Assembly (NCBI RefSeq): GCF_000020025.1
Contig: NC_010628.1
Span: 7,170,001 to 7,202,000 of the forward strand
Direction: 5' to 3'
From: Nostoc punctiforme PCC 73102
GTDB lineage: Bacteria > Cyanobacteriota > Cyanobacteriia > Cyanobacteriales > Nostocaceae
DNA length: 32,000 nt
The notes under the pieces: generated by a model
Told to the model about the DNA's origin: nothing
Seen by the model: only the letters and a program-made list of their open reading frames with translations
Database searches by the model: none
Made by a program: the position numbers and the translations under genes
In this document: positions 1,599 through 20,311 of the stretch, one piece after another
How the letters are laid out: each line of letters begins with the position of its first letter
Numbering within the stretch: position 1 is the first letter of the stretch

Positions 1599-4478
1599 TC
1601 AAAGCTGATGTGGGTTACTTATTGGAGTCTGATCTAAATCTTGATTGAACTTTGTTAAGTCTTTACCCTCAAGAAGTGTTCCTTGAAGATTCGCCCCTTC
1701 AAAATTTGCCTTTTCAAAATTTGCGTCTACAAAATTCTCTTGAGCAAGATATGCCCCTTGAAGATTCGCTTCTCTGAGATCCGCACTTTCAATATTTATC
1801 GGAAAAAAACTGGCTCTCTTAAGATTTGCTTTTCTAAGATTGCTCTGTTTAAGATTCACTAAAGTTAAAGTTGCATTTTCAAGGTTAGCATTTTCAAGAT
1901 TGGCATTTGAAAGGTTGGCATTTTCAAGATTGGCATTTGAGAGGTTAGCATTTTCAAGATTGGCATTTGAGAGGTTAGCACCTTGAAGATTGGCCCTTGC
2001 CATATTTACACCTCTAAGATTTGCATATCTGAGATTTGATTCAACAAGATTTGTCAATATCATCTCTACATCTTCAAGATTTGCTTCCTCAAAATTTGCA
2101 CCACAAAAATCTTGGATATGGAGAATTGAACCTTGTAAACATAAAAAACTAAGATATTTCAAAGATAAAACATCTTTATCTAATCTTTGTCCACGAAGAC
2201 GTGAGATCCATATACCAAAGGAATCAATATAAGGGCATTTAATATCTGATTTTTTTCTTGTTAATCGGGCACAGGCATTTAATACAGCTAACAAAGCCTT
2301 TTCTGCATTATGTGCTTGCCAATTTTCTAGCCAAAATTCCTGTCTGCGATTCAAAAGTTCCATTGGCATTCCATGACTTAACATGAAACTAATCAAGCGA
2401 CATAGGGTCTGCTGCCAGTTACTTACATCTGATAAATTCTGTAAACGAAGTTCATCTAGGATGAAGTTGAACAAATATTCATCCATTGAGGATGGACAAC
2501 ACAAAATTGCCCAATGCGCTAAAGCTTGTCGATCATCCCAGCCCCGATCTAGATCATTCTCTCGTTGTTCTAGTTCGTCATGAATACGTTTAATTCCTCG
2601 CACAATGCGTCTAGCTGTGAGATATTCACCAAAACTCTTATGAGTAAATTCAAAGGTTTTATCTTCTGCTCTAACCCCACTTTGCCGGAAATAAAAAGCA
2701 GCTAACAAACGAGTTAAACCTAATTTCGCACCTTCTTGAAATATGTTTAAAAGACGTTTTAAACCAATATTTTCACAATGATTTTCTATTTGTTTAACTG
2801 TTGTTGTCCTTCCATAACCATGCCAAGTAGCAAGAGCAATCTCTTCCAGAATTCGGACAAAATCTTTTTCTTCGATTCCCTGAATTGCCGGATGCTGATA
2901 ACCAGTCCAACCACGCTCATAAACTGCTTTAAGTAGGTCTTCATAAATAGCATTTAGGTTGCTATCTTCAGAAAAGCGTACTGTACCTCGTACAAAGCTT
3001 AAGGCAACCAAATAATTCAGCAAAGGTTGGGCAGTAATTTCTGTAAGTTTGCCTTGGTCTAGTTCTGATGGTAAGCCAGTATACTCGTAACCACTAGCTT
3101 TACCATAAGATTGCCACCAAACTTGCCGTTGATCTTGCTCTAAAAATTTATGAGTATCAATATAATTTTTCCTTTCATCTTCAGTTACAAAATAAGGCAG
3201 TATATGTAATATTTGCTGATGTAGACGAAAGTCAGTGCTATTTGCTTGCACTACCAGTTCCCGACCACTGATTAATACTTGTAATCGATTTTCACGCCCA
3301 TTAAAGCGATCTACTTTTTTTTGTACTTCACGAACAAAGTCTTGTGCAGTTTTTTCTGCAATTTTGCCCTGCATAGCAAGTTCATCTAAGGCATCAAAGA
3401 TAATGAGTAAACGTGATTCACCCTCGTCTTGCTGTAAAGGATTATGGCGAAGAAAACCATCATCTCGCACAAATTTACCCACTGCATCAACTAAGTCATC
3501 CGAGGGATCAAAATGATGCAAAGGTATAAATAACACAGAAATTTGTCCTTTTTCTGCCTGGTTAGCGGCAAAGATTTTGGCAAAAGAAGATTTCCCACTT
3601 CCTGGCCCACCACTAATTACTCGGATGGCATCATTGCGCTCACCCTTTTCTAACCAAAGTTCCAGTTCAGTTTCTAGGTCAACAACAATCTGCTCATATT
3701 TATTATCTTCCCTGGATCTACGTTCAAATTCTTCATTTTTTTCAACCTCAAGTTTACGGTGATAATAGGCACGCAAGGGAACATAAACTTGTTTGAGACC
3801 AAAGGCTTCCAAAAACATTGGTTCTTCAACTTGTTTTTGTAGCCATGCTAAATAACGCCGCCATCTTTGTTCCCGTTCACTTGCTTTAGTAAAGGGGGTA
3901 TCTAGCTTCTCTTTTAAAGAGGCATAGTCTTGAGGATGATTTCCCCAAAGTTCATTGAGAGCATCTACAAAATAGCTAGGAAGCCGATTACTAATTGTCT
4001 CTGCTTGAGGTTGGTTAAAACCACAGTCTTCTAACCATTCTCTAAAAGGAGTTTTAATTACTTCAAAAAGGGGTAAGTCTTTGGGACGCTCAAAAAAGTT
4101 TTGATCTATAACTAACTGACTGTTTTGCAATGACTTGTCTAAACGATTGCATAATACTTTAAAATCAATTTCCTTGCTTAATAAGTCTTTATTTCCTTCC
4201 TTCTTAACCAGTAAGTCTTTATTTCCCTCTACCAAGCTACGCATTGCCTGCATTAGAGAGCGGTAAATCAGCAACCATGCTACTTGTCCAGTATCTGCTC
4301 CTAGTCCAAGTGCGCCTAAAGTGTCTACCGCATCTCCAGCTAAACTGTCCCATTTACCAAAGCCAGCATCTACCGCAGCTTTGCCTAGAGATTTAAACAA
4401 ATCCCTGAAATTTACCTTGATATCCTTATTCCATATAGCAACTGGCTTGCTAACTGGAATTCCAGGGGTGTTGCTCAT
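1599..4478 (-). CDS. NACHT-type STAND P-loop NTPase with C-terminal pentapeptide-repeat module and unassigned ~285-aa N-terminal domain
   Basis: Walker A VISGGPGSGKSS is encoded at nt ~3588-3614, and the Walker B-like motif is LLIIFDALDEL. A long helical region follows. The C-terminal ~146 aa (nt ~1668-2105) are A(N/D)LxX pentapeptide repeats, including [10 protein letters not shown] x3. Confidence 0.85.
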   Translation of the reverse strand: MSNTPGIPVSKPVAIWNKDIKVNFRDLFKSLGKAAVDAGFGKWDSLAGDAVDTLGALGLGADTGQVAWLLIYRSLMQAMRSLVEGNKDLLVKKEGNKDLLSKEIDFKVLCNRLDKSLQNSQLVIDQNFFERPKDLPLFEVIKTPFREWLEDCGFNQPQAETISNRLPSYFVDALNELWGNHPQDYASLKEKLDTPFTKASEREQRWRRYLAWLQKQVEEPMFLEAFGLKQVYVPLRAYYHRKLEVEKNEEFERRSREDNKYEQIVVDLETELELWLEKGERNDAIRVISGGPGSGKSSFAKIFAANQAEKGQISVLFIPLHHFDPSDDLVDAVGKFVRDDGFLRHNPLQQDEGESRLLIIFDALDELAMQGKIAEKTAQDFVREVQKKVDRFNGRENRLQVLISGRELVVQANSTDFRLHQQILHILPYFVTEDERKNYIDTHKFLEQDQRQVWWQSYGKASGYEYTGLPSELDQGKLTEITAQPLLNYLVALSFVRGTVRFSEDSNLNAIYEDLLKAVYERGWTGYQHPAIQGIEEKDFVRILEEIALATWHGYGRTTTVKQIENHCENIGLKRLLNIFQEGAKLGLTRLLAAFYFRQSGVRAEDKTFEFTHKSFGEYLTARRIVRGIKRIHDELEQRENDLDRGWDDRQALAHWAILCCPSSMDEYLFNFILDELRLQNLSDVSNWQQTLCRLISFMLSHGMPMELLNRRQEFWLENWQAHNAEKALLAVLNACARLTRKKSDIKCPYIDSFGIWISRLRGQRLDKDVLSLKYLSFLCLQGSILHIQDFCGANFEEANLEDVEMILTNLVESNLRYANLRGVNMARANLQGANLSNANLENANLSNANLENANLSNANLENANLENATLTLVNLKQSNLRKANLKRASFFPINIESADLREANLQGAYLAQENFVDANFEKANFEGANLQGTLLEGKDLTKFNQDLDQTPISNPHQL

Positions 4479-4594
4479 AATATATATAGATGCTTGGCTA
4501 GCAGTATTTAGATAATCTATTTAAACAAGACTTTATAAGTAATGTCACTGCAACTAAAAAGTTGTAGCATTTTTTGTACAACAACAACACCTTA

Positions 4595-4855
4595 CTTAAA
4601 GTTGTCAGGCTCAAAGGCTCAACGTTGAGGATAAAAGGCTCAACGTTGAGGATAAAAGGCTCAATGCTGAGGCTAAAAGGCTCAACTCTCAGGCTCAAAG
4701 GCTCAACGTTGAGGATAAAAGGCTCAACTGTCAGGCTTAAAGGCTCAATGCTGAGGCTAAAAGGCTCAACTCTCAGGCTCAAAGGCTCAACTCTCAGGCT
4801 CAAAGGCTCAACGCTGAGGATAAAAGGCTCAACTGTCAGGCTTAAAGGCTCAAAA
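4595..4855. repeat. Tandem array of 21-bp units (11 complete, 2 partial)
   Basis: Complete units span 4616-4846 with consensus GGCTCAA-N5-AGG-NTNAAA. The variants are GGCTCAACGTTGAGGATAAAA (x3, plus one CGCTG variant), GGCTCAATGCTGAGGCTAAAA (x2), GGCTCAACTCTCAGGCTCAAA (x3) and GGCTCAACTGTCAGGCTTAAA (x2). Confidence 0.95.
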
Positions 4856-4880
4856 ATGACTTGGTGATTAGAAATCGCGG

Positions 4881-4910
4881 CTGCACAAACAAAACCCGCC
4901 TGGGCGGGTT
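4881..4910 (-). terminator. Rho-independent terminator for minus-strand transcription (end of the phn / 157-aa gene transcription unit)
   Basis: GC-rich stem AACCCGC / GCGGGTT (4893-4899 / 4904-4910), loop CTGG. On the minus strand it is followed directly by TTTTGTTTGTG. Confidence 0.6.
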
Positions 4911-4962
4911 GCAAAAATTTTTATACCATTTTGATTGATGATTGCAACACATCCTTGGGTAA

Positions 4963-5068
4963 AGACGCGATTCATCGCGTCTCTACAAATGGTCTATTTG
5001 TTGCATTCTTTTTTTAAATTGGTATTAGATACAAAATATGGTAGGGAAGCACGGGTGTACTTCCCTAC
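4963..5068. repeat. Two intergenic hairpin repeats
   Basis: AGACGCGA-TTCA-TCGCGTCT lies at 4963-4982. GTAGGGAAG-N10-CTTCCCTAC, a 9-bp perfect stem, lies at 5041-5068. Both sit downstream of the 157-aa gene and resemble dispersed hairpin repeats of Nostocales genomes. Confidence 0.6.
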
Positions 5069-5144: not shown

Positions 5145-5618
5145 TTAGCTAGCTGCGGCTTCGGGTTTCTTTTTCTTGGAACGGCGGCTAAACCTGCGTC
5201 CCATCTCATCAATTACTGCATCTAAACCTGTAACATCACCGCTAGCTTTGGCATAGCTATAAATTGCTAATGCTGCTGCATAAGCTTCACTACCAGCCGC
5301 TATACAAGTATCATCCACCAGTTCTTGCAGTTGGGTTAGAGACAACAGCACCGGATACAAATCTTCATATATTTCCAAGTCCCGGCGCATCTCTTCCAAA
5401 TCAAAATAACGAGGCAAAAAGTTAGGGTTCTGTGTCGCCACTTCTAAAGCTTTACTGACAAAAGCCCGACTTTTATCTCCCATCTTGACTATGGTGCGTC
5501 GGTCTTCAGTAGTCAAATCAATTAAAAACGGTAACTTTTCTCTAATTGTAGCGATCGCTTGCATGACTGCTTCTTTATCTGCTGGGGCTAGACTGGCACT
5601 GATGCGATTCTCTGCCAT
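5145..5618 (-). CDS. Conserved-looking hypothetical protein (helical, basic C-terminal tail)
   Basis: 157-aa ORF on the same strand as phnE and 84 bp downstream of it. No recognisable catalytic motif. The C-terminus is RRSKKKKPEAAAS. Confidence 0.55.
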   Translation of the reverse strand: MAENRISASLAPADKEAVMQAIATIREKLPFLIDLTTEDRRTIVKMGDKSRAFVSKALEVATQNPNFLPRYFDLEEMRRDLEIYEDLYPVLLSLTQLQELVDDTCIAAGSEAYAAALAIYSYAKASGDVTGLDAVIDEMGRRFSRRSKKKKPEAAAS

Positions 5619-5702
5619 TTTTAATACTCCTTTAGGGTACTTAATTTCAGTATTCCCAAAGTTATATGGCTTTGCCTCAAATTTAAAATTAACAATTAAA
5701 TA

Positions 5703-6497
5703 CTACATAGAATCGAGCCGATGACGTAATTGGCTACTAAAAGCATCAATTACTGTGACGACAACCAAAAGCACTAACATCATGGTTGTTGCTTTTGTGT
5801 ACTCAAACCCATCGATGTAACTTTTTAACTGAAAGCCAATACCACCTGCACCAACTACACCCAAGACAGAAGCAGCACGGATGTTGTACTCAAACATCCA
5901 AAAGGTGTAACCCAATCCCAGAGGTAGTACTTGCGGGAGAATGCCGTATTGAGCAATCTGTAACTTCGAGGCTCCGATAACTTGCAAGGATTCAAGAGAA
6001 CGCGGATCAACCGCTTCAATTGCCTGTTGATAAAATTTGGCAAGGTAGCCGATGGTGTAGATTCCTAAAGCTAAAGTTCCTGCTGGTGCGCCTAAGCCAG
6101 TGGCGGCAACAAAAATTAGCCCCAGAATAATTGAGGGGACAGAACGTACAGTATTTTGCAGTAAATTAGCTAGCGATCGCAACCACCCAGGCGCAACGTT
6201 GCTGGAGCTAGCTATAGCAATCGGTACAGAAAGAATTGCCCCAATGGTAGTTCCCCATAAAGACATCTGTACAGTTTCAATTAATGCTTTAACTGCAATA
6301 TCTAAAACTTTCCAATCGGGAGGAAATAACCGGGTAATAAAATCGGTGATGTATGGCCAGCTAGAACTTAGCAGTTCAAAATCGAGTTTGAGTCCTCGCA
6401 AAGCCCAACCATAAACTACTACCACAATTAATAAAATGAGTAGAGAACTCAGCCAAGGGTAGAAACGTAAGCGTTTTGACTTAAAAAAATAACTCAT
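5703..6497 (-). CDS. phnE: Phosphonate-type ABC transporter permease
   Basis: 264 aa and multi-TM. It shows a typical PhnE-family pattern (..TVQMSLWGTTIGAILSVPIA.., EAVDPRSLESLQVIGASKLQ..) and lies in an operon with an ATPase and a PhnD-type SBP. Confidence 0.85.
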   Translation of the reverse strand: MSYFFKSKRLRFYPWLSSLLILLIVVVVYGWALRGLKLDFELLSSSWPYITDFITRLFPPDWKVLDIAVKALIETVQMSLWGTTIGAILSVPIAIASSSNVAPGWLRSLANLLQNTVRSVPSIILGLIFVAATGLGAPAGTLALGIYTIGYLAKFYQQAIEAVDPRSLESLQVIGASKLQIAQYGILPQVLPLGLGYTFWMFEYNIRAASVLGVVGAGGIGFQLKSYIDGFEYTKATTMMLVLLVVVTVIDAFSSQLRHRLDSM

Positions 6498-6600
6498 ATT
6501 GTATTGAAGAAGAATTCAGGAGTCAGAATCCAAGAGTCAGAATAAATTTTGAATTCTGGCGACTGACGTATGTATTCTGTTTTGTTAAATCAAATCTTAC
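6498..6600. repeat. Short-repeat element in the phnC-phnE spacer
   Basis: GAATTCAGGAGTCAGAAT..GAGTCAGAAT..GAATTCTGG. The first ~30 nt are nearly identical to 7345-7370. Confidence 0.7.
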
Positions 6601-7335
6601 TCAAGCGGAAACTCTAGCAAATTGAGCTTGTAAGTTGTCACAAAGTCCTTGGTAAACGACGCGTCCAGCATCTAAGACGATCGCTTGCCCTGCGTATTTT
6701 TCTGCGATTCCCAAATCGTGCAGAACTGCGACAATAGTCATACCTTGCTCAGTGTGCAATTCAGATAGAGTTTCCATGACTTGTTGCGATGCGACAATAT
6801 CTAAGCCAGTGATGGGTTCATCGACTAAGAGAATTTGCGGTGATTGAATTAAAGTCCGGGCGATCGCTACTCGTTGTTGCTGTCCGCCACTTAATTGACT
6901 GGTTTTTTGAAAAGCTAACTCTCCCAGTCCTAACTGTTCTAATAAATTTAGTGCCAAAAAGCGATCGCGTTTGGAAAATCCCAACAGTGTTTGCCAAGTT
7001 GTTCTTTTACCAAGGCATCCGCATAAGACATTTTCCAGTGCTGATAACTGCCGAATCAATCCACCACCTTGAAATAACATCCCAACATCGCGCCGAATCT
7101 TTGGCAGTGTTCGGGAATTCATCTCAACATTATTGACGATCACTTCTCCTCTCACTGATGGCACTAATCCAACTAGCGATCGTAGTAATGTAGACTTACC
7201 AGCACCGTTTAGCCCCAGCAAAACGACAAATTCACCGCGTTTAATCTGGCAATTAATCCCGTTGAGAATAGGACGATTGAGAGATGGAGTATAAGCTGTC
7301 TCTAGGTTATGACACTCAATAACATAATCATTCAT
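6601..7335 (-). CDS. phnC: ABC transporter ATP-binding protein (phosphonate-import type)
   Basis: Walker A GLNGAGKST, ABC signature LSGGQQQRVAIAR, Walker B ILLVDEP. The phn assignment comes from its position between phnD and phnE. Confidence 0.8.
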   Translation of the reverse strand: MNDYVIECHNLETAYTPSLNRPILNGINCQIKRGEFVVLLGLNGAGKSTLLRSLVGLVPSVRGEVIVNNVEMNSRTLPKIRRDVGMLFQGGGLIRQLSALENVLCGCLGKRTTWQTLLGFSKRDRFLALNLLEQLGLGELAFQKTSQLSGGQQQRVAIARTLIQSPQILLVDEPITGLDIVASQQVMETLSELHTEQGMTIVAVLHDLGIAEKYAGQAIVLDAGRVVYQGLCDNLQAQFARVSA

Positions 7336-7487
7336 AGAAATTTATTGAACAGAATTCAGGAGTCAGAATGGGCTAAACGCCCCGCTACCGCTAACAGAAT
7401 GAATTTTGACCGAAAACGCGGATAGCGCCGCGTCTCGTAGAGAGGTCAAGATTGGTGAATTCTAAATTCTGAATTCTGAATTCTGAA
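7336..7487. repeat. Heptamer-armed hairpin element filling the phnD-phnC spacer
   Basis: The left arm is CAGAATTCAGGAGTCAGAAT (7350-7369). The right arm is four tandem AATTCTG heptamers (~7458-7485), complementary to the left arm. The core contains the GCGTCTCGTAGAGAG mini-hairpin shared with other elements in the window. Confidence 0.75.
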
Positions 7488-8468
7488 TTATGGTTCAATG
7501 CCAGCAATTTGCAGAGCATTACGGATAGTTGCTAGGTGACGATCGTGGTCAATTCGCACTAACTCTGTGGAATTATACAAGTCGGTTAGCAATTTATTAT
7601 TTTGCGACTTATTTAATTTCAGTAAACCGTTGATGATTTTTTCCCGTGTTGGAGCTGGAACATCATCATCAATGGCAATACCGTGGGCAGGTACACCATT
7701 AATTTTGTGCAGAACCCGTAACTTACTCTTCTCTTCTGCGGTGATATAAGGTGGATTGAGAGCATATTCTGACACAACAGCCACATCAGCTTGACCGCGC
7801 ACAACTGCTTGCAAGGCTTTGCTGTAATTGCCGCCGTAAGAAATTTGACCAAAGAAACCATCTAAGCGATCGCGGTTGGGTACAAATTTTTGTTTGACCA
7901 ACTCAGCGACAGGGATAATAAACCCAGAGCCAGAAGTAGGGGAAGTAAAAGCAATTTTTTTGCCCCGCAGTTGTTCCAAAGTGGCTTTAGCTGAATTTTG
8001 AGTTTTTAGGGGACTATTCTTAGGAACAACAAATGTTGAGCTATAGGTGTATCTTCCAGAATAAGTAGGACGAACTTCGGCTAGATACAAGCTGGCGTTT
8101 GCTAATTGTTTCGCTTTCAAAGCCGGACGGCTACTTAAAAAAGCGACATCAGCCCGGTTTGCTCTCAAAGCTTCCACAGCAGCTGTATCATCACCAACTT
8201 GGGCGACGACTGGAATTCCTAACTCTTTGGATAAAAAAGCTCCTACCGCATTTGCCTTATTTTGCAAGTCTGTAGAATCAGCACGGCTAGGAAAAATTAT
8301 TGTTAAAGCCTTTAGATTTTGGGCAAGTAAGCGTGGTGTTTGTTGATTAGCGGTGGGGTTGGCGATCGTTGCCTGCATAGCCCCTACTGTGCTGACTACT
8401 AAACCTGTAAGCACTACAAATGCTGCACCAGCACCCAATAAGCTCTTTTTCCTCACACTCATTTGCAA
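7488..8468 (-). CDS. phnD: Phosphate/phosphite/phosphonate ABC transporter periplasmic binding protein
   Basis: 326 aa with an N-terminal signal-like hydrophobic segment. PhnD-family body (..KKIAFTSPTSGSGFIIP.., ..GQADVAVVSEY..). Confidence 0.8.
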   Translation of the reverse strand: MQMSVRKKSLLGAGAAFVVLTGLVVSTVGAMQATIANPTANQQTPRLLAQNLKALTIIFPSRADSTDLQNKANAVGAFLSKELGIPVVAQVGDDTAAVEALRANRADVAFLSSRPALKAKQLANASLYLAEVRPTYSGRYTYSSTFVVPKNSPLKTQNSAKATLEQLRGKKIAFTSPTSGSGFIIPVAELVKQKFVPNRDRLDGFFGQISYGGNYSKALQAVVRGQADVAVVSEYALNPPYITAEEKSKLRVLHKINGVPAHGIAIDDDVPAPTREKIINGLLKLNKSQNNKLLTDLYNSTELVRIDHDRHLATIRNALQIAGIEP

Positions 8469-8614
8469 CTCTCCATTAGGAAGTTTTATCAGTTCTTTTG
8501 CTAATTAATTGCAATTAACTCCTAAAAAATATTTAAGCCTTTTAAGAATAAAAGTCAATAACAAAGCCTAGTTTGTTTGGAGAGTTGTAGACTTATTTTG
8601 TGAATGTATTGGCA

Positions 8615-9910
8615 CTAACCGCTAATTACAGCGATCGCATCAATCTCTACCAACACATCTTTAGGTAAGCGCGATACCTGAACACAAGCCCGCGCTGGGG
8701 CTGTATTTTCCGGGAAATATTTAGCATAAACGGCATTCACCGCCGCGAAATCATTCATATCAGCTAAAAATACAGTGGTCTTCACCACGTCTTGAAAAGT
8801 TGCTCCGGCTGCTGTGAGGATGGCTTCAAGATTAGCTAATACCTGCTCAGTTTGCTTTTTGACATCATCAGTGTAGACGACATCACCAAGGCGGGGATCG
8901 ATGGCAATTTGTCCAGCTATGAATACAAATTGACCTGAAGCTGCGATCGCTTGATTATAAGGACCCACTGGTGCAGGTGCGTTATCAGTATTAATTACTT
9001 TACGGGTCATAGATATTACTTTCTCTAACGATGTTTCCTGTTTACCGATTTCTGCTTCAGCTGCGATCGGTTTGTAAACTTCTCCATCTGGCATTATCGC
9101 ACGGCTAAAGTCAGCATCTTCAATTAGCCATCCGTAAGTAGCAGCATCGGTCAAGTCTGCTCTGGTCAAATTGGTTTCTTTCAAATTTACGTTTTTTAAA
9201 TCTGCTCCTTGGAGAACTGCTCTCTCCAAATTTGCTCTTTGGAGAGAAGATTCTTTGAGGTTTACTTGTGCGAGATTGGCTCCAGACAAATCAGAGCCAG
9301 TCAGATTTAATCCTGATAGATTAAAATTCTGTAAATTTACAGCTTGCAGTTTAGCACCCTGTAGATTTGCCTTCTGAAAGTTCACACCCTGTAAGTTGGC
9401 TCTACTCAAATCCGCTCCTACTAAGGAAACTCCATTAAAGTCTATACTACTGAGTGTTGAATTACTCAAATCTGCTCCTACTAAGGACACTTCTCTCAGT
9501 TTTGTATTACTCAAATTTGCATTACTCAAATTTGCCTTGTCTAAGTTGGCATGGCTTAAGTTTGCACTACTTAGATTTGCTCTGATGAAATTAACACTGG
9601 TTAAGTTTGCACCATTAAAATTTGCTGATGACTGTACCCGATTTCGATTCTCCCAAAGCTCTGAACCATTCACCTCACTCAAATTTGCACCTGATAGGGA
9701 TGCTTTACTGAAATCGGTTCCGTTAATTTTTGCGTTTGTCAGATTTGCTTTAGTTAAATCTGCACCTTTAAAATTTGCAGCAGTCAGGTCGGCATTAGAT
9801 AAGTCTATTTGCATTAGGTCTGTATTTCTGAGGTCTGCTTTTCTCAGTACTGCTCCTTGAAAGTTTCGTTGTCCTTCGGCGTATTTCTCTAACAGTTCCT
9901 CAGCATCCAT
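8615..9910 (-). CDS. Pentapeptide-repeat domain fused to a RidA/YjgF (reactive intermediate deaminase) domain
   Basis: A single 431-aa ORF. Residues ~17-268 are A(D/N)LxX repeats. Residues 301-431 ([44 protein letters not shown]) are a full-length RidA domain. An internal ATG at nt 9010 could also give a stand-alone RidA. Confidence 0.8.
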
Positions 9911-10423: not shown

Positions 10424-10453
10424 TGATGTACTATCAACTGCTCTGCACTATAA

Positions 10454-11902
10454 CCCTCTTCTGTCACTTTCCGGAATAAGGAAGTAGTAAAGAAGCTAAA
10501 TCATCCAGAAGCATAACAGGGTTTAAATTGATTCATGGCTGCAATTAAATGATTGAATCCCAGTAATAACTGTGAATTAGGGAAAATATCGAGCCAAGGA
10601 TAAATCAACCAAAATAGTAAGAGTGGTTGGACGATTAGACGCAGATTATTTAAAACATTCTTCCATCCAGATTCATGATTCCATTGTTGATGATTAGAAA
10701 AGTCAATATGACTAGTTCTTTGCCCCTCAGCCTCAATTTGGCGAGATTGATTTAAGGCTAACAAGGCTGGAGAATTCAAACTAATCATCGTGTAAACGCA
10801 AAAAATAATCTCCCACCACCTCTCAATATGTTGAAAATTTGTGAAACGATAATCTGTCCAGCCTAGTTCTTGTTTACACTGTCGAAAACCATATTCAACC
10901 CAGGTTCTTAATCCATATAAGTCGCCTAAAGTCTTTTTCAAATTCCCTTGAAGATTCGTCATCACGAAGGAGGTAGAATTTTCTGGCATGGTTTCTGGGT
11001 CAGTAGTTATTTCCCAGTAAGTTATGGTTCTTTTTTTACCATAAATTATTTCTCTAATGTATCTAGTCTCTGATTTTTGATTACTAAATGTTCTCTCAAA
11101 TTTACACCAATTGTTTGCTCTAACACTTTGCCCTGCTGGCAACCAGACTCCATGATTACTTCTAATTGCTACCACATAGGCTAAGTTATATTCATCCAGT
11201 TTTCTAATAAATTGGCTACTTTCACCATATAAACTATCTGCCAGTACCAGTTCAATCTGAAAGCCCTCTTCCATTAACTCTGTAATCATTTCTGACGCTA
11301 ACTCTATTTTAGTTTTATATTTATCTCCCTCTTTCAGCGTCCCTTTTGGTTTAAACACTTTTACCATTAATGGAAAGGTTATATTAGAGTAAACTCCATA
11401 AGCATTGACTGAAACTATTCCATTATCAATTTTTCCCACACTTCCTAAGTATTGTCTCGCCACATAGTCAGTCTTTTTACCTTTTTTTCTATCTCCAGTT
11501 TCATCTATTACTACTGTAATCGCCTGACCATTCAATACTTGCTTAAGTTTATTTAATCTTCGTTGTTTTAATTCATCTACTGACCAATCTGAATTTGCCA
11601 GGAAATGATGTAATGATTGGGCTGAGTTTATACTTACTACCTTCGCTATCTCTGGTAATGATTTCCTTTTTATTGTTGATATGATTCCTAAGTGTAAATA
11701 TTTGAAACACTCATAATTTCTTACTTCCTTAAATAGGTCTTTATAATCTGCACAATATTCATCTATGATGGCAACTGTTGGGTGGGCATCTCTTGCCAAA
11801 TGTTTCAGTATTTGTAACTCTACATCCATTGCCCCACTTACCTTTCAAGGTTTTCTTTTTTTATTCTTTTATTCAGAATACCCGGAAAGTGACAGAAGAG
11901 GG
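10454..11902 (-). mobile_element. Intact IS701-like insertion sequence
   Basis: Perfect 21-bp terminal inverted repeats: CCCTCTTCTGTCACTTTCCGG at 10454-10474 and its reverse complement at 11882-11902. A 4-bp direct target duplication ATAA lies at 10450-10453 and 11903-11906. There is a single full-length transposase ORF. Confidence 0.85.
10501..11829 (-). CDS. DDE transposase (IS701 / IS4-superfamily like)
   Basis: 442 aa. Candidate DDE residues lie in VVIDETGDRKKG, LVLADSLYGESS and WVEYGFRQCKQELG. The N-terminal region (SLPEIAKVV..SAQSLHHFLANSDWSVDEL) is typical of IS701-type transposases. Confidence 0.8.
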   Translation of the reverse strand: MDVELQILKHLARDAHPTVAIIDEYCADYKDLFKEVRNYECFKYLHLGIISTIKRKSLPEIAKVVSINSAQSLHHFLANSDWSVDELKQRRLNKLKQVLNGQAITVVIDETGDRKKGKKTDYVARQYLGSVGKIDNGIVSVNAYGVYSNITFPLMVKVFKPKGTLKEGDKYKTKIELASEMITELMEEGFQIELVLADSLYGESSQFIRKLDEYNLAYVVAIRSNHGVWLPAGQSVRANNWCKFERTFSNQKSETRYIREIIYGKKRTITYWEITTDPETMPENSTSFVMTNLQGNLKKTLGDLYGLRTWVEYGFRQCKQELGWTDYRFTNFQHIERWWEIIFCVYTMISLNSPALLALNQSRQIEAEGQRTSHIDFSNHQQWNHESGWKNVLNNLRLIVQPLLLFWLIYPWLDIFPNSQLLLGFNHLIAAMNQFKPCYASG

Positions 11903-12043
11903 ATAACCTTACCGTCGTCTCAGGAGACAGCCATTTTCAAAGGATACAACAACTACGAGCCTTAGAATCTTGGCTTTGACATCCTCCCAACACCAACCGA
12001 TTCCTACGGAACGTTAACACAAACTGTATGTTGGGGAATTCCA

Positions 12044-12129
12044 GATATTCCTCTCCTCTTCTCTCTGCGCTCTCTGCGCCTCTGCGGTTCGTCCCTCTTA
12101 CCCCAACCTCGGACGTATCCCATAATGCC
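12044..12129. repeat. ~86-bp dispersed repeat, copy B
   Basis: Direct-orientation copy of 9965-10052. It overlaps the last ~10 codons and the stop codon of the NUDIX gene. Confidence 0.85.
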
Positions 12130-18907: not shown

Positions 18908-20311
18908 ATGATTGGTGAAATATTAGGCGAACGCTATCAAGTTCAGCAGCTATTAGGCAAAAAAGCAGGGCGACGGACGCTTGTAGCTCGTGATTGGAAC
19001 ACTCAGGAATTAGTTGTTATTAAGTTACTCTCTTTTAGTAGTGACTTTGAATGGGATTCACTCAAGCTGTTTGAGCGAGAAGCTGAAACTCTAAAATCTT
19101 TGTCACATCCCTTAATACCTCGCTATTTAGACTATTTTGAGGTAAATTCACCCACCATCAAAGGATTTGCCCTAGTACAAAGTTATATCCCAGCAAAAAC
19201 TTTAGAGCAATACGTCCAATCTGGCCGGACTTTTACCGAAGTAGAAGTCAAAGAGATAGCCAAAGCACTTTTAGAAATTCTCATTTATCTACATGGGTTA
19301 TATCCGCCTGTTATCCATCGTGATATTAAGCCTAGCAATATTTTATTGGGAGAGCGTTCTGGTAACAGTGTTGGTAAAGTTTACCTAGTAGATTTTGGCT
19401 CGGTGCAAACTGTTCTTGCTACAGAAGGTGGAACTAGGACTGTGGTGGGAAGCTATGGGTATATGCCACAGGAGCAATTTGGCGGACGCACGGTTCCGGC
19501 TTCCGATCTTTATAGCTTAGGTGCAACTTTAATTTATTTAGTGACGGGTACTCATCCAGCCGATTTACCCCAAAAAGATTTTCGTATTCAGTTTGAACAG
19601 GTGGCTAATGTGAGTCCTGAATTGACTCGCTGGTTGCAGCAAATGACTCAACCCAGTCTAGAGAGGCGTTTTAGTTCTGCTGCTGGTGCGCTCGCAGCTT
19701 TAGACAAATCACAAACGACAAACTTGCCTACTTTGGTTGTAGGTAAACCAGATGGGAGTAAGATTCAATTAACCAAAAATGGGGATTCTCTAGAAATTAT
19801 CGTTCCACCATCTGGTTTTGATCCATCAATAATATTCACAGGTTTATTTGCGATCGTCTGGAATTCATTTATCCTCTTTTGGACAATTGGCGCACTCTCT
19901 ATTCCTTTTCCTGTCAACATCCCCTTTGCTTTGTTCTCACTTCCTTTTTGGGGTGCTGGCTTTCTCATGGTGTATAAACTTCTCTTTCATTTATGTGGAC
20001 GCATCTGCTTACGCCTGAATGCAGAACAAATTACCCTAAGTTGGGAGTTGTTTAGTTGGAAATTTTATCGCCCCCGTGCATCGTCAAGGCAAAGTATTAA
20101 TAAGTTAGTTTACATTCCCAAACATTTTACTAAAAATTCTGATGGCACTAGAATTGCCGTTCCAGCAGAATTATATATTTGCTCAGGAGTACAAAAATAT
20201 CAGCTTGGTGGAAACGATATCGGTATTAAATCCGAAGTAGAACTTGAATGGTTAGCTCATGAATTAAGTGATTGGTTGGGTTTGCCAATTACCAAGCCAA
20301 TGGGAAGTTAG
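18908..20311 (+). CDS. Membrane-anchored Ser/Thr protein kinase
   Basis: Hanks-type kinase: VIKLL (Lys), catalytic loop HRDIKPSNILL, and DFG. Hydrophobic segments follow at ~aa 305-360, then a C-terminal domain of unknown function. Confidence 0.9.
   Translation: MIGEILGERYQVQQLLGKKAGRRTLVARDWNTQELVVIKLLSFSSDFEWDSLKLFEREAETLKSLSHPLIPRYLDYFEVNSPTIKGFALVQSYIPAKTLEQYVQSGRTFTEVEVKEIAKALLEILIYLHGLYPPVIHRDIKPSNILLGERSGNSVGKVYLVDFGSVQTVLATEGGTRTVVGSYGYMPQEQFGGRTVPASDLYSLGATLIYLVTGTHPADLPQKDFRIQFEQVANVSPELTRWLQQMTQPSLERRFSSAAGALAALDKSQTTNLPTLVVGKPDGSKIQLTKNGDSLEIIVPPSGFDPSIIFTGLFAIVWNSFILFWTIGALSIPFPVNIPFALFSLPFWGAGFLMVYKLLFHLCGRICLRLNAEQITLSWELFSWKFYRPRASSRQSINKLVYIPKHFTKNSDGTRIAVPAELYICSGVQKYQLGGNDIGIKSEVELEWLAHELSDWLGLPITKPMGS

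Follow-up and report, generated by a model that had tools for sequence, protein, structure and literature searches.

The Avs proteins of Gao et al. 2020/2022 are said to combine an N-terminal output domain, a STAND ATPase and C-terminal repeats that directly bind phage proteins. The effector-NACHT-repeat logic is found also in the animal NLRs (e.g., NLRP3 and NLRC4), and bNACHT01 from Klebsiella pneumoniae (NNH1+NACHT+NCH1, clade 14), a bacterial NACHT protein with validated anti-phage activity, is a single-gene system with a helical NNH head in which no enzyme is recognizable. Here we analyze a gene from Nostoc punctiforme PCC 73102 that is located at 1599..4478 on the minus strand of a 32,000-nucleotide stretch of DNA (hereafter, the window). 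In the open reading frame listing of the window, it appears as a single frame with an ATG start that encodes a protein of 959 amino acids (aa), and an exact-sequence look-up identifies the product as ACC84102.1 (WP_012412045.1, UniProt B2J986), currently annotated merely as “pentapeptide repeat protein”. The look-up, the homologs, in which the N-terminus is kept, and an AlphaFold2 (AF2) model all indicate that this is a complete NNH3-NACHT-pentapeptide repeat gene. On balance, the encoded protein probably belongs to bNACHT clade 9 and acts as a stand-alone STAND switch of the NLR type, in which a ligand sensed by the tail would lead to NACHT oligomerization and then to NNH3 output, likely in an immune capacity.

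The domain organization as such is already catalogued. Among the entries available to us from Table S1 of the bacterial NACHT census of Kibby et al. (bioRxiv 10.1101/2022.07.19.500537), clade 9 consists of NNH3+NACHT+Pentapeptide proteins (e.g., WP_118166576.1 from Nostoc sphaeroides and WP_168505314.1 from Anabaena sp. UHCC 0187), with domain order and names identical to those of the PCC 73102 protein and with the D[GAS]hDE signature present; a sister group, NNH4+NACHT+Pentapeptide, comes from Vibrio, Nitrospirae, Bacteroidetes and others. The NNH3 domain and the architecture in common with these entries place the PCC 73102 protein, by inference, in bNACHT clade 9. Because clade 9 is listed yet has no tested member among these entries, and the literature search found neither functional work on pentapeptide-bearing NLRs nor any publication naming this gene, the architecture is catalogued but functionally uncharacterized, as the first-pass annotation (made from the sequence alone) had supposed, and the gene is a new member rather than a new architecture. 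What is new here is the divergence island, the age of the alleles, the repeat-number polymorphism and the slot replacement behind a conserved anchor, all of which are described below.

The family includes more than 120 full-length homologs with 55-94% identity, and all the named ones come from filamentous cyanobacteria of genera that include Nostoc, Calothrix, Anabaena, Microcoleus, Coleofasciculus, Symploca, Leptolyngbya and Chlorogloeopsis. When NNH3 alone is the query, an exhaustive search yields 953 clusters at 50% identity, and nearly all the full-length members among the best 150 have the identical NNH3-NACHT-pentapeptide architecture. Rare variants of the NNH3-NACHT theme (P0256 and P0128) differ from this plan: in one, a LeuA allosteric (leucine-binding) domain replaces the repeats, and in the other, a C-terminal GAF domain is added; these are small-molecule-sensor versions of the NNH3-NACHT switch. 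A REC-bearing variant is present in the available part of the Kibby table (10.1101/2022.07.19.500537).

Domain architecture and NACHT membership

The Pfam NACHT model PF05729 scores 23.0 bits on this copy, below its gathering threshold of 26.7, and four other members of the family (P0241, P0191, P0180 and P0239) exceed the cutoff with 34.6-37.6 bits. Comparison of the family profile with Protein Data Bank (PDB) sequences was discarded as proof of NACHT identity because it matched pentapeptide proteins only and no NACHT protein. Given the sub-threshold Pfam score and this outcome, the NACHT status was examined through motifs, fold and hhalign comparison, with the criteria of Kibby et al. and with motif invariance judged from 69 aligned homologs. 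The nucleotide-binding domain (aa 229-440, window 3159..3794, minus strand), delineated by conservation, hhalign and Foldseek, starts with the pre-NACHT strand VYVPLRAYY (aa 231-239), and the segment LKQVYVPLRAYY aligns to LKDMYHPLRI of bNACHT01. The Walker A motif GGPGSGKSS, which matches GxxxxGK[ST], is intact at aa 290-298 (3585..3611, minus), with G293, S294, G295, K296, S297 and S298 invariant; the catalytic lysine, which the first-pass annotation numbered K295, is K296. In the NACHT subclade of STAND NTPases, the Walker B motif has the signature D[GAS]hDE, i.e., a small residue after the magnesium-binding aspartate and two acidic residues one position on (Kibby et al., 10.1101/2022.07.19.500537). 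Here, the Walker B motif LLIIFDALDEL (aa 357-367; 3378..3410, minus) contains D362-A-L-D365-E366 with invariant D362, D365 and E366; across the family, the consensus reads DGLDE.

The arm that follows, helical domain 1, winged helix and helical domain 2 (aa 441-775; 2154..3158, minus), contains a sensor-1-like VLISGRE, TAQPLLNYL (aa 482-490) and the winged-helix motif FEFTHKSFGEYL (aa 609-620; 2619-2654, minus), all of them invariant or nearly so; in the last motif, F609, E610, T612, H613, F616, G617, E618, Y619 and L620 are invariant, and it corresponds to the NLR motif ‘FxHxSFQEFL’ (FxHxSFxE[FY]L in the generalized form). Among the family representatives, Walker A is found in 124 of 126, the Walker B signature in 108 of 113 and F.H.[ST] in 83 of 89; overall, the NACHT motifs are present in 94-98% of the representatives at 50% identity. 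The hhalign match to bNACHT01 spans aa 204-372, with the pre-NACHT strand and both Walker motifs included (E 3.8e-5). The AF2 model built from the 69 homologs has a mean predicted local distance difference test score (pLDDT) of 80.1 and a predicted template modeling score (pTM) of 0.76, and a Foldseek search started with this model identifies NLRP3 (7zgu_A, E 6.9e-10; 8ri2, E 1.7e-7) with alignments across the helical domain 1/winged helix/helical domain 2 region. Thus, the tripartite layout proposed in the first-pass annotation, a helical N-terminal part, a P-loop NTPase with the two quoted Walker motifs and a pentapeptide tail, has been located in full and its NLR-like character confirmed, and the NACHT membership of the 959-aa protein is established. 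As judged from the intact motifs, aa ~229-775 form a competent NACHT ATPase module between NNH3 and the pentapeptide beta-helix. The fold search that had been proposed gave a divided result, as the full protein matches NLRP3 and pentapeptide helices and NNH3 has no fold match.

The likeness to characterized systems has clear limits. With bNACHT01, the similarity is confined to the NTPase core: the NNH domain belongs to another family, the C-terminus of bNACHT01 is a short helical domain rather than repeats, and the lengths differ (609 vs 959 aa). The animal NLRs have in common with the PCC 73102 protein the NACHT fold and the winged-helix histidine motif, but the identity is only ~10-12%, and they carry leucine-rich repeats and PYD or CARD domains where this protein has a pentapeptide beta-helix and NNH3. 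The Avs proteins differ by their TPR-like sensors, nuclease or other enzymatic heads and a different STAND subclade, and there is no Avs match in PADLOC.

Residues 21-228 (3795..4418, minus) match the Pfam domain PF22735, “NACHT N-terminal Helical domain 3” (NNH3), with E 2.8e-52 and 178 bits versus a cutoff of 27, so that the N-terminal region, which the first-pass annotation took for an unassigned and possibly new domain, is a named one within an architecture catalogued as bNACHT clade 9; the domain name goes back to the census (Kibby et al., bioRxiv 10.1101/2022.07.19.500537). The core (aa 60-230) is all-helical and confidently modeled (helices H63-85 to H201-217, pLDDT ~80-90). It is preceded by a segment (aa 15-59; 4302..4436, minus) with pLDDT below 50 in both models despite its sequence conservation, with K18, K33, W43, A47, L57, G58 and L59 near-invariant. 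This segment holds part of the previously noted Gly-rich stretch GKWDSLAGDAVDTLGALGLGADTGQVAWLL, which is indeed present at aa 41-70 and in which G58 is the sole conserved glycine; a glycine zipper or a transmembrane helix was considered for aa 41-70 and rejected because G58 alone is conserved and the hydrophobicity is too low. Also considered was a Bell/HeLo-type death domain with amyloid (BASS) signaling, for which the criterion is a five-helix bundle of ~120 aa with a hydrophobic N-terminal helix and a neighboring gene with a common short amyloid motif. This candidate was rejected as well, given that NNH3 comprises ~210 aa and has no hydrophobic N-terminal helix; there is no Bell-type gene beside the NACHT gene, and inspection of the 157-aa neighbor and of the NACHT protein N-terminus found no common motif. 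No PHROG matches NNH3.

A local hhalign match between aa 1-53 and part of the NNH1 domain of bNACHT16 (E 6e-9, to be taken with caution because the template is a single sequence) hints, at the sequence level, that the NNH families are related. In the available part of the Kibby table, an NNH domain can stand between an effector or adaptor and NACHT, e.g., in EAD10+NNH3+NACHT+Pp and PNP_UDP_1+NNH1+NACHT+LRR (10.1101/2022.07.19.500537), so that NNH3 may not be an effector but may instead extend the NACHT module at its N-terminus. The protein and its closest alleles have in common a small in-frame duplication within NNH3, EGNKDLLVKK/EGNKDLLSKE (aa 84-103, window 4170-4229), which falls in a low-pLDDT loop and is gapped in ~29% of the homologs.

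The predicted sensor is a right-handed beta-helix of pentapeptide repeats (aa 776-940; 1659..2153, minus), recognized both by Pfam and by Foldseek. The helix proper, at ~aa 779-935, has about 8 coils and matches PF00805 with E 2e-42; its length of ~150 aa agrees with the ~146 aa given in the first-pass annotation. The AF2 model shows one strand per 5 residues (pLDDT 90-98), in line with the A(D/N)LXX quadrilateral beta-helix of PF00805. Foldseek identifies 2j8k (E 5e-12, template modeling (TM) score 0.73, 38% identity), with TM scores of 0.73-0.80 to 2j8k and 4ycq, and the family profile matches the pentapeptide protein 3du1 with E 4e-50. The closest proteins by sequence are Np275/Np276, HetL (All3740) and Alr5209, which have the same right-handed quadrilateral beta-helix but are small stand-alone proteins. 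Identity of the tail to cyanobacterial and designed pentapeptide proteins (e.g., Np275/276 and HetL) is 24-41%, versus 13-21% to MfpA and Qnr, which have the same fold (TM up to 0.77) but for which the scores are far below the NCBIfam equivalog cutoffs (35.2 bits vs 360 for MfpA and 45.8 vs 240 for Qnr); the tail does not belong to the HetL equivalog family either (NF047416, 88.8 bits vs 260).

Across 117 homologs, the NTPase is the best conserved module (mean identity 74%; residues 211-240 are the top block, with 87%), followed by the helical/winged-helix arm (67%), NNH3 (57%) and the tail (47%), which is the most variable part, with lengths of 88-259 aa in the family. A 30-nucleotide tandem DNA repeat within the tail (1873..1994; 4.1 copies, 91% match, detected by Tandem Repeats Finder (TRF)) encodes 10-aa units. 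The allele P0274 is 100% identical elsewhere and lacks 10 aa in this repeat, and the 92%-identical P0272 lacks 20 aa; for P0274, collapse of the repeat in a short-read assembly is a possible cause of the deletion. As the differences among near-identical alleles amount to entire 10-aa units, the beta-helix may be lengthened or shortened through slippage, half a coil at a time.

Allelic divergence and the variable slot

The strain Nostoc C052 has identical flanking genes on both sides, with 91-96% identity of the flanking DNA, and identity falls to 52-87% exactly over the NACHT gene (NNH3 53-71%, NTPase 78-87%, tail 52-63%). By the Nei-Gojobori method, the synonymous divergence (dS) from C052 is 1.06 for the gene and 0.11-0.36 for three flanking genes, and the ratio of nonsynonymous to synonymous divergence (dN/dS) is ~0.2 for the gene overall, with 0.35-0.41 in the tail versus 0.04-0.21 in its other regions. 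In Calothrix NIES-2100, the flanks are more divergent (73-82%), yet the allele is closer (83%). Given this excess of dS at a dN/dS of ~0.2, the alleles are much older than the surrounding locus and not merely faster-drifting, which indicates allelic replacement by recombination or long-lived polymorphism. The gene is also AT-richer than its flanks, as had been noted before: its GC content is 0.378 (0.347 in the Asn/Leu-rich tail), compared with 0.418 for the window and 0.41-0.48 for the neighboring genes.

On its upstream side, the gene is accompanied by a conserved gene for a hypothetical protein of 157 aa (5145..5618, minus), which homolog and locus comparison identifies as the anchor of a variable slot. 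The 157-aa protein is all-helical, has more than 1100 homologs and is conserved across Nostocales (79% mean column identity in a sample of 21 sequences); searches of Pfam, NCBIfam, PADLOC, PHROG and PDB gave no match. In the window and in N. foliaceum, Nostoc C052, Nostoc UHCC 0302 and Nostoc HK-01, the slot contains an NNH3-NACHT-pentapeptide gene; in Nostoc DSM 114161 and the Lobaria cyanobiont, with the same malQ-NUDIX-RidA-157aa context as in the window, it contains a STAND+TPR gene of the NB-ARC-like type (856/890 aa), near which there are other STAND genes and PIN/ParE/TumE modules; and in one FACHB assembly (L011) it contains a kinase/WD40 gene on the opposite strand. The order 157-aa gene, array, NLR-like or repeat gene recurs in 8 anchored loci. 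Thus, the slot is variable and can take several alternative NLR-like cassettes, this gene among them, and the fixed, invariable core position that would have spoken against the first-pass annotation is not observed, as the occupants vary among Nostoc strains.

The array in question is a tandem repeat with a 21-nucleotide period that lies between the upstream terminator and the start codon (4607..4853; 11.8 copies by TRF; 11 pattern matches vs 0.12 expected). A strictly phased array of this kind, with ~8-14 copies, follows the anchor in all the scanned anchored loci (window, L001, L003, L009-L013). The idea that the array regulates the NACHT gene was rejected because it follows the 157-aa gene whatever gene comes next; for the same reason, it marks the boundary of the slot and is not NACHT-specific. 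Several units in the window contain the 12-bp palindrome CTCAACGTTGAG, and an array is found also at the Calothrix NIES-2100 locus (L002). The array is unique of its kind in the window and has no Rfam match; the open reading frames 4498-4914 (minus) and 4574-4867 (plus) are artefacts of it, and the 21-nucleotide-period array upstream of the Leptolyngbya homolog (L005) is unrelated. Two terminator-like hairpins, at 4893..4910 (minus) and 5041-5068, both of them pattern matches from a consensus scan, separate the 157-aa gene from the NACHT gene, which for this reason looks monocistronic.

The window is ordinary chromosome, with malQ, NUDIX, rodZ, pseudouridine synthase, cdsA, Ser/Thr kinase, cphA/cphB and other genes. 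Of the accessory-looking patch suggested in the first-pass annotation, there remain only local insertions that are missing from relatives: a phnC/D/E phosphonate ABC transporter (5666-8615) and an insertion sequence with an IS4/DDE transposase (10431-12084), as seen from comparison with N. foliaceum, Calothrix NIES-2100 and Nostoc C052. The phn genes of Nostoc UHCC 0302 lie on the opposite side of the NACHT gene. The NACHT gene is flanked by the 157-aa gene on one side and, on the other, by an antitoxin-like ribbon-helix-helix gene and a 140-aa open reading frame. The ribbon-helix-helix protein (81 aa; 1146-1391, plus) weakly matches DUF6290/CopG, Arc-like and HicB-like antitoxins, has no obvious adjoining toxin partner and is kept beside the NACHT gene in Nostoc C052. 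At 8615-9910 (minus), a pentapeptide-repeat domain of ~290 aa is fused to a RidA/YjgF (Rid family) domain; this fusion is syntenic in relatives (436-456 aa), and for its RidA part, the match to PADLOC PD-T4-2_B is confined to the domain level. The kinase domain of a Ser/Thr kinase (18908-20311, plus) matches PADLOC PD-T4-6 models (E 3e-59), probably as a generic kinase. Among the neighbors in the window, PADLOC recognizes only such generic RidA, kinase and ABC-ATPase domains, and scans against PHROGs and Rfam yielded nothing relevant.

The gene contexts of the relatives, gathered by exact-protein look-ups, are diverse. The homologs of Calothrix 6303 and Anabaena azotica are located among housekeeping genes; in Leptolyngbya, the gene adjoins HepT/MNT and transposases, and in Microcoleus it is near a caspase-STAND gene. 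In Nostoc sp. MS1, ndhF3 and ndhD3 of the CO2-uptake operon flank the gene (L008, 7453-14962), which looks like an insertion into the operon. No partner gene is common to the homolog loci across genera. Toxin-antitoxin modules (PIN, ParE, TumE, HepT/MNT) and a ribbon-helix-helix gene are found near several homolog or slot loci; the slot itself holds alternative STAND/repeat genes and scattered toxin-antitoxin modules, with no recognized defense system adjacent.

Proposed mechanism and alternative roles

By analogy with NLRs, Avs and bNACHT proteins, the NACHT domain at rest would be bound to ADP and kept in a closed state against the repeat tail. A ligand that docks on the exposed faces of the beta-helix would free NACHT from autoinhibition and, again by analogy, permit nucleotide exchange and oligomerization, which would gather the NNH3 heads and produce the output. 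The ligand would most likely be an invader protein, e.g., from a cyanophage, or a host protein modified by the invader; the likeliest outputs are growth arrest or death of the infected filament cell, caused by the clustered NNH3 itself or by a recruited factor. Taking the comparative evidence together, the most likely role would be anti-phage or anti-mobile-element immunity in filamentous cyanobacteria. The divergence island, the least-constrained tail of variable length and the STAND/repeat replacements at the slot resemble the evolution of conflict genes, and the variable slot and the NLR layout fit an immune or conflict role, without being proof of it. An NNH-only head is compatible with phage defense, as bNACHT01 shows. 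Among the available census entries, clade-9 relatives bear domains of conflict systems, namely an EAD10 adaptor preceding NNH3 and Ntox49 (10.1101/2022.07.19.500537).

Several observations weigh against an immune function. The defense-system scan with PADLOC (window and slot loci) found no defense model: the sole match of the NACHT gene is a weak one of its P-loop to mad8 (E 7e-4), and none of the slot occupants, including the homolog at L012, is recognized. There is no canonical defense island around the gene, the neighbors being core genes, and no close relative was found on a plasmid or a phage; on plasmids, there are only distant NACHT+pentapeptide relatives (23-30% identity). NNH3 has no significant structural neighbor in PDB (best E 0.28) or among the BFVD viral predicted structures, and the structure searches recognized no toxic or enzymatic fold in it. 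The architecture is fixed at 55-65% identity across cyanobacterial orders, which is more conservative than many defense genes, and the overall dN/dS indicates clear purifying selection. In the available part of Table S1, clade 9 carries no ‘bNACHT’ test label, the tested genes being from E. coli, Klebsiella and Vibrio and members of other clades (10.1101/2022.07.19.500537). The REC, GAF and LeuA-allosteric C-terminal variants known from the family and from those entries hint at physiological inputs.

Since there is neither a tested relative nor a match to a defense model nor an island, and the family combines purifying selection with physiological-looking variants, non-immune signaling is a serious rival, although we consider it rather unlikely. 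The protein would then be a STAND ATPase of physiological or developmental signaling, in which the pentapeptide helix binds an endogenous partner and regulates a process of filamentous cyanobacteria. Other cyanobacterial pentapeptide proteins, e.g., HetL, work in development, and the tail is nearer to HetL and Np275/276 than to Qnr or MfpA; the chromosomal location among core genes, the restriction of all named homologs to filamentous cyanobacteria and the fixed architecture are as expected under such a role. A housekeeping regulator, however, should track its flanks, and here the dS of the gene is 3-10x that of the flanks, with identity falling exactly at the gene borders. Furthermore, unrelated STAND-TPR or WD40 genes take the identical slot, the position varies between genera and the number of repeats is polymorphic, all of which argues against a developmental regulator.

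A more elaborate immune scheme appears improbable to us: the tail would be a nucleic-acid-shaped decoy that catches cyanophage DNA-binding proteins, clustering of NNH3, for which no solved structure is analogous, would carry out a new type of abortive response in a single cell of the filament, and the 157-aa gene with the array would constitute a chromosomal landing pad at which Nostoc strains exchange NLR-type receptors and keep ancient allele classes. Its sensor part, already proposed in the first-pass annotation together with a membrane-active N-terminal effector, is a slightly fainter prospect in that original form, i.e., a pentapeptide helix that mimics B-form DNA and baits DNA-binding proteins of invaders, joined to a membrane-active NNH3. 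The beta-helix superposes on MfpA (6zt4_A, TM 0.77; 2bm4_A, TM 0.76) and Qnr, and the tail is mildly acidic, with a net charge of -10 (family median -9); the hallmark of the Qnr/MfpA DNA mimics is a dimeric rod that has B-DNA dimensions and is uniformly electronegative. Any pentapeptide protein superposes on MfpA, however; the identity is low, the Qnr and MfpA cutoffs are missed, the charge varies in the family from -23 to +7 and the remainder of the protein is just as acidic, so that the DNA-mimic bait finds no specific support. As to the effector, the N-terminal 60 residues are conserved yet modeled with low confidence, as might be expected for a segment that changes conformation, but there is no hydrophobic or strongly amphipathic helix in NNH3 (for the best 18-residue window, mean hydrophobicity is 0.54 and the hydrophobic moment muH is 0.15) and its fold matches neither pore-forming nor HeLo/MLKL-type bundles (AtMLKL3, E 4.5, TM 0.13), which leaves membrane activity unsupported.

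Equally doubtful is a two-gene module, in which the 157-aa protein, with the 21-nucleotide array, would be the constant partner of whichever NLR-like gene fills the slot. Conflict systems of the kind described by Aravind often combine a constant component with variable ones, and two of the 8 loci with the recurrent gene order (L012 and L013, from UHCC 0302 and HK-01) have outer flanks wholly different from those of the window. Short intergenic distance alone can, however, account for lasting linkage. In Calothrix 6303, Leptolyngbya, Microcoleus, Anabaena azotica and Nostoc MS1, no homolog of the 157-aa protein is encoded at less than 10 kb from the NACHT gene, and the 157-aa gene is missing from the syntenic NACHT-pentapeptide locus of Calothrix NIES-2100. 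Where both genes occur, they do not co-diverge (82-99% identity for the anchor vs 56-94% for NACHT), and at L011 the neighbor is on the opposite strand. The 157-aa gene as an obligate partner or a Bell/BASS-type effector was accordingly rejected, given the non-adjacency in distant genomes, the terminators and the lack of co-divergence.

Least credible of all is a locus of allorecognition or kin discrimination with ancient allele classes under balancing selection, like the fungal NACHT-WD40 het genes: the fungal HET-E/D proteins are NACHT-plus-repeat proteins, the age of the alleles is far above that of the flanks and alternative cassettes occur at one locus, but pathogen-driven diversification or simple cassette replacement predicts a like signature, no partner locus was identified, and cytoplasmic fusion is not known to occur between Nostoc filaments, which counts against this possibility.

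Significance for bacterial NLR-like proteins

The bacterial NACHT proteins, of which enterobacterial clades alone have been put to the test, are prokaryotic relatives of the animal inflammasome receptors, and clade 9 is their pentapeptide-sensor clade, abundant in multicellular cyanobacteria. Because N. punctiforme PCC 73102 is a genetically tractable model, the immune hypothesis is directly testable. Should the gene turn out to be ordinary, the label “pentapeptide repeat protein” could still be replaced with a correct annotation. The findings at the locus, namely the divergence island, the age of the alleles, the unit-wise polymorphism of the repeats and the alternative STAND cassettes, provide a handle on the diversification of bacterial NLR-like proteins.

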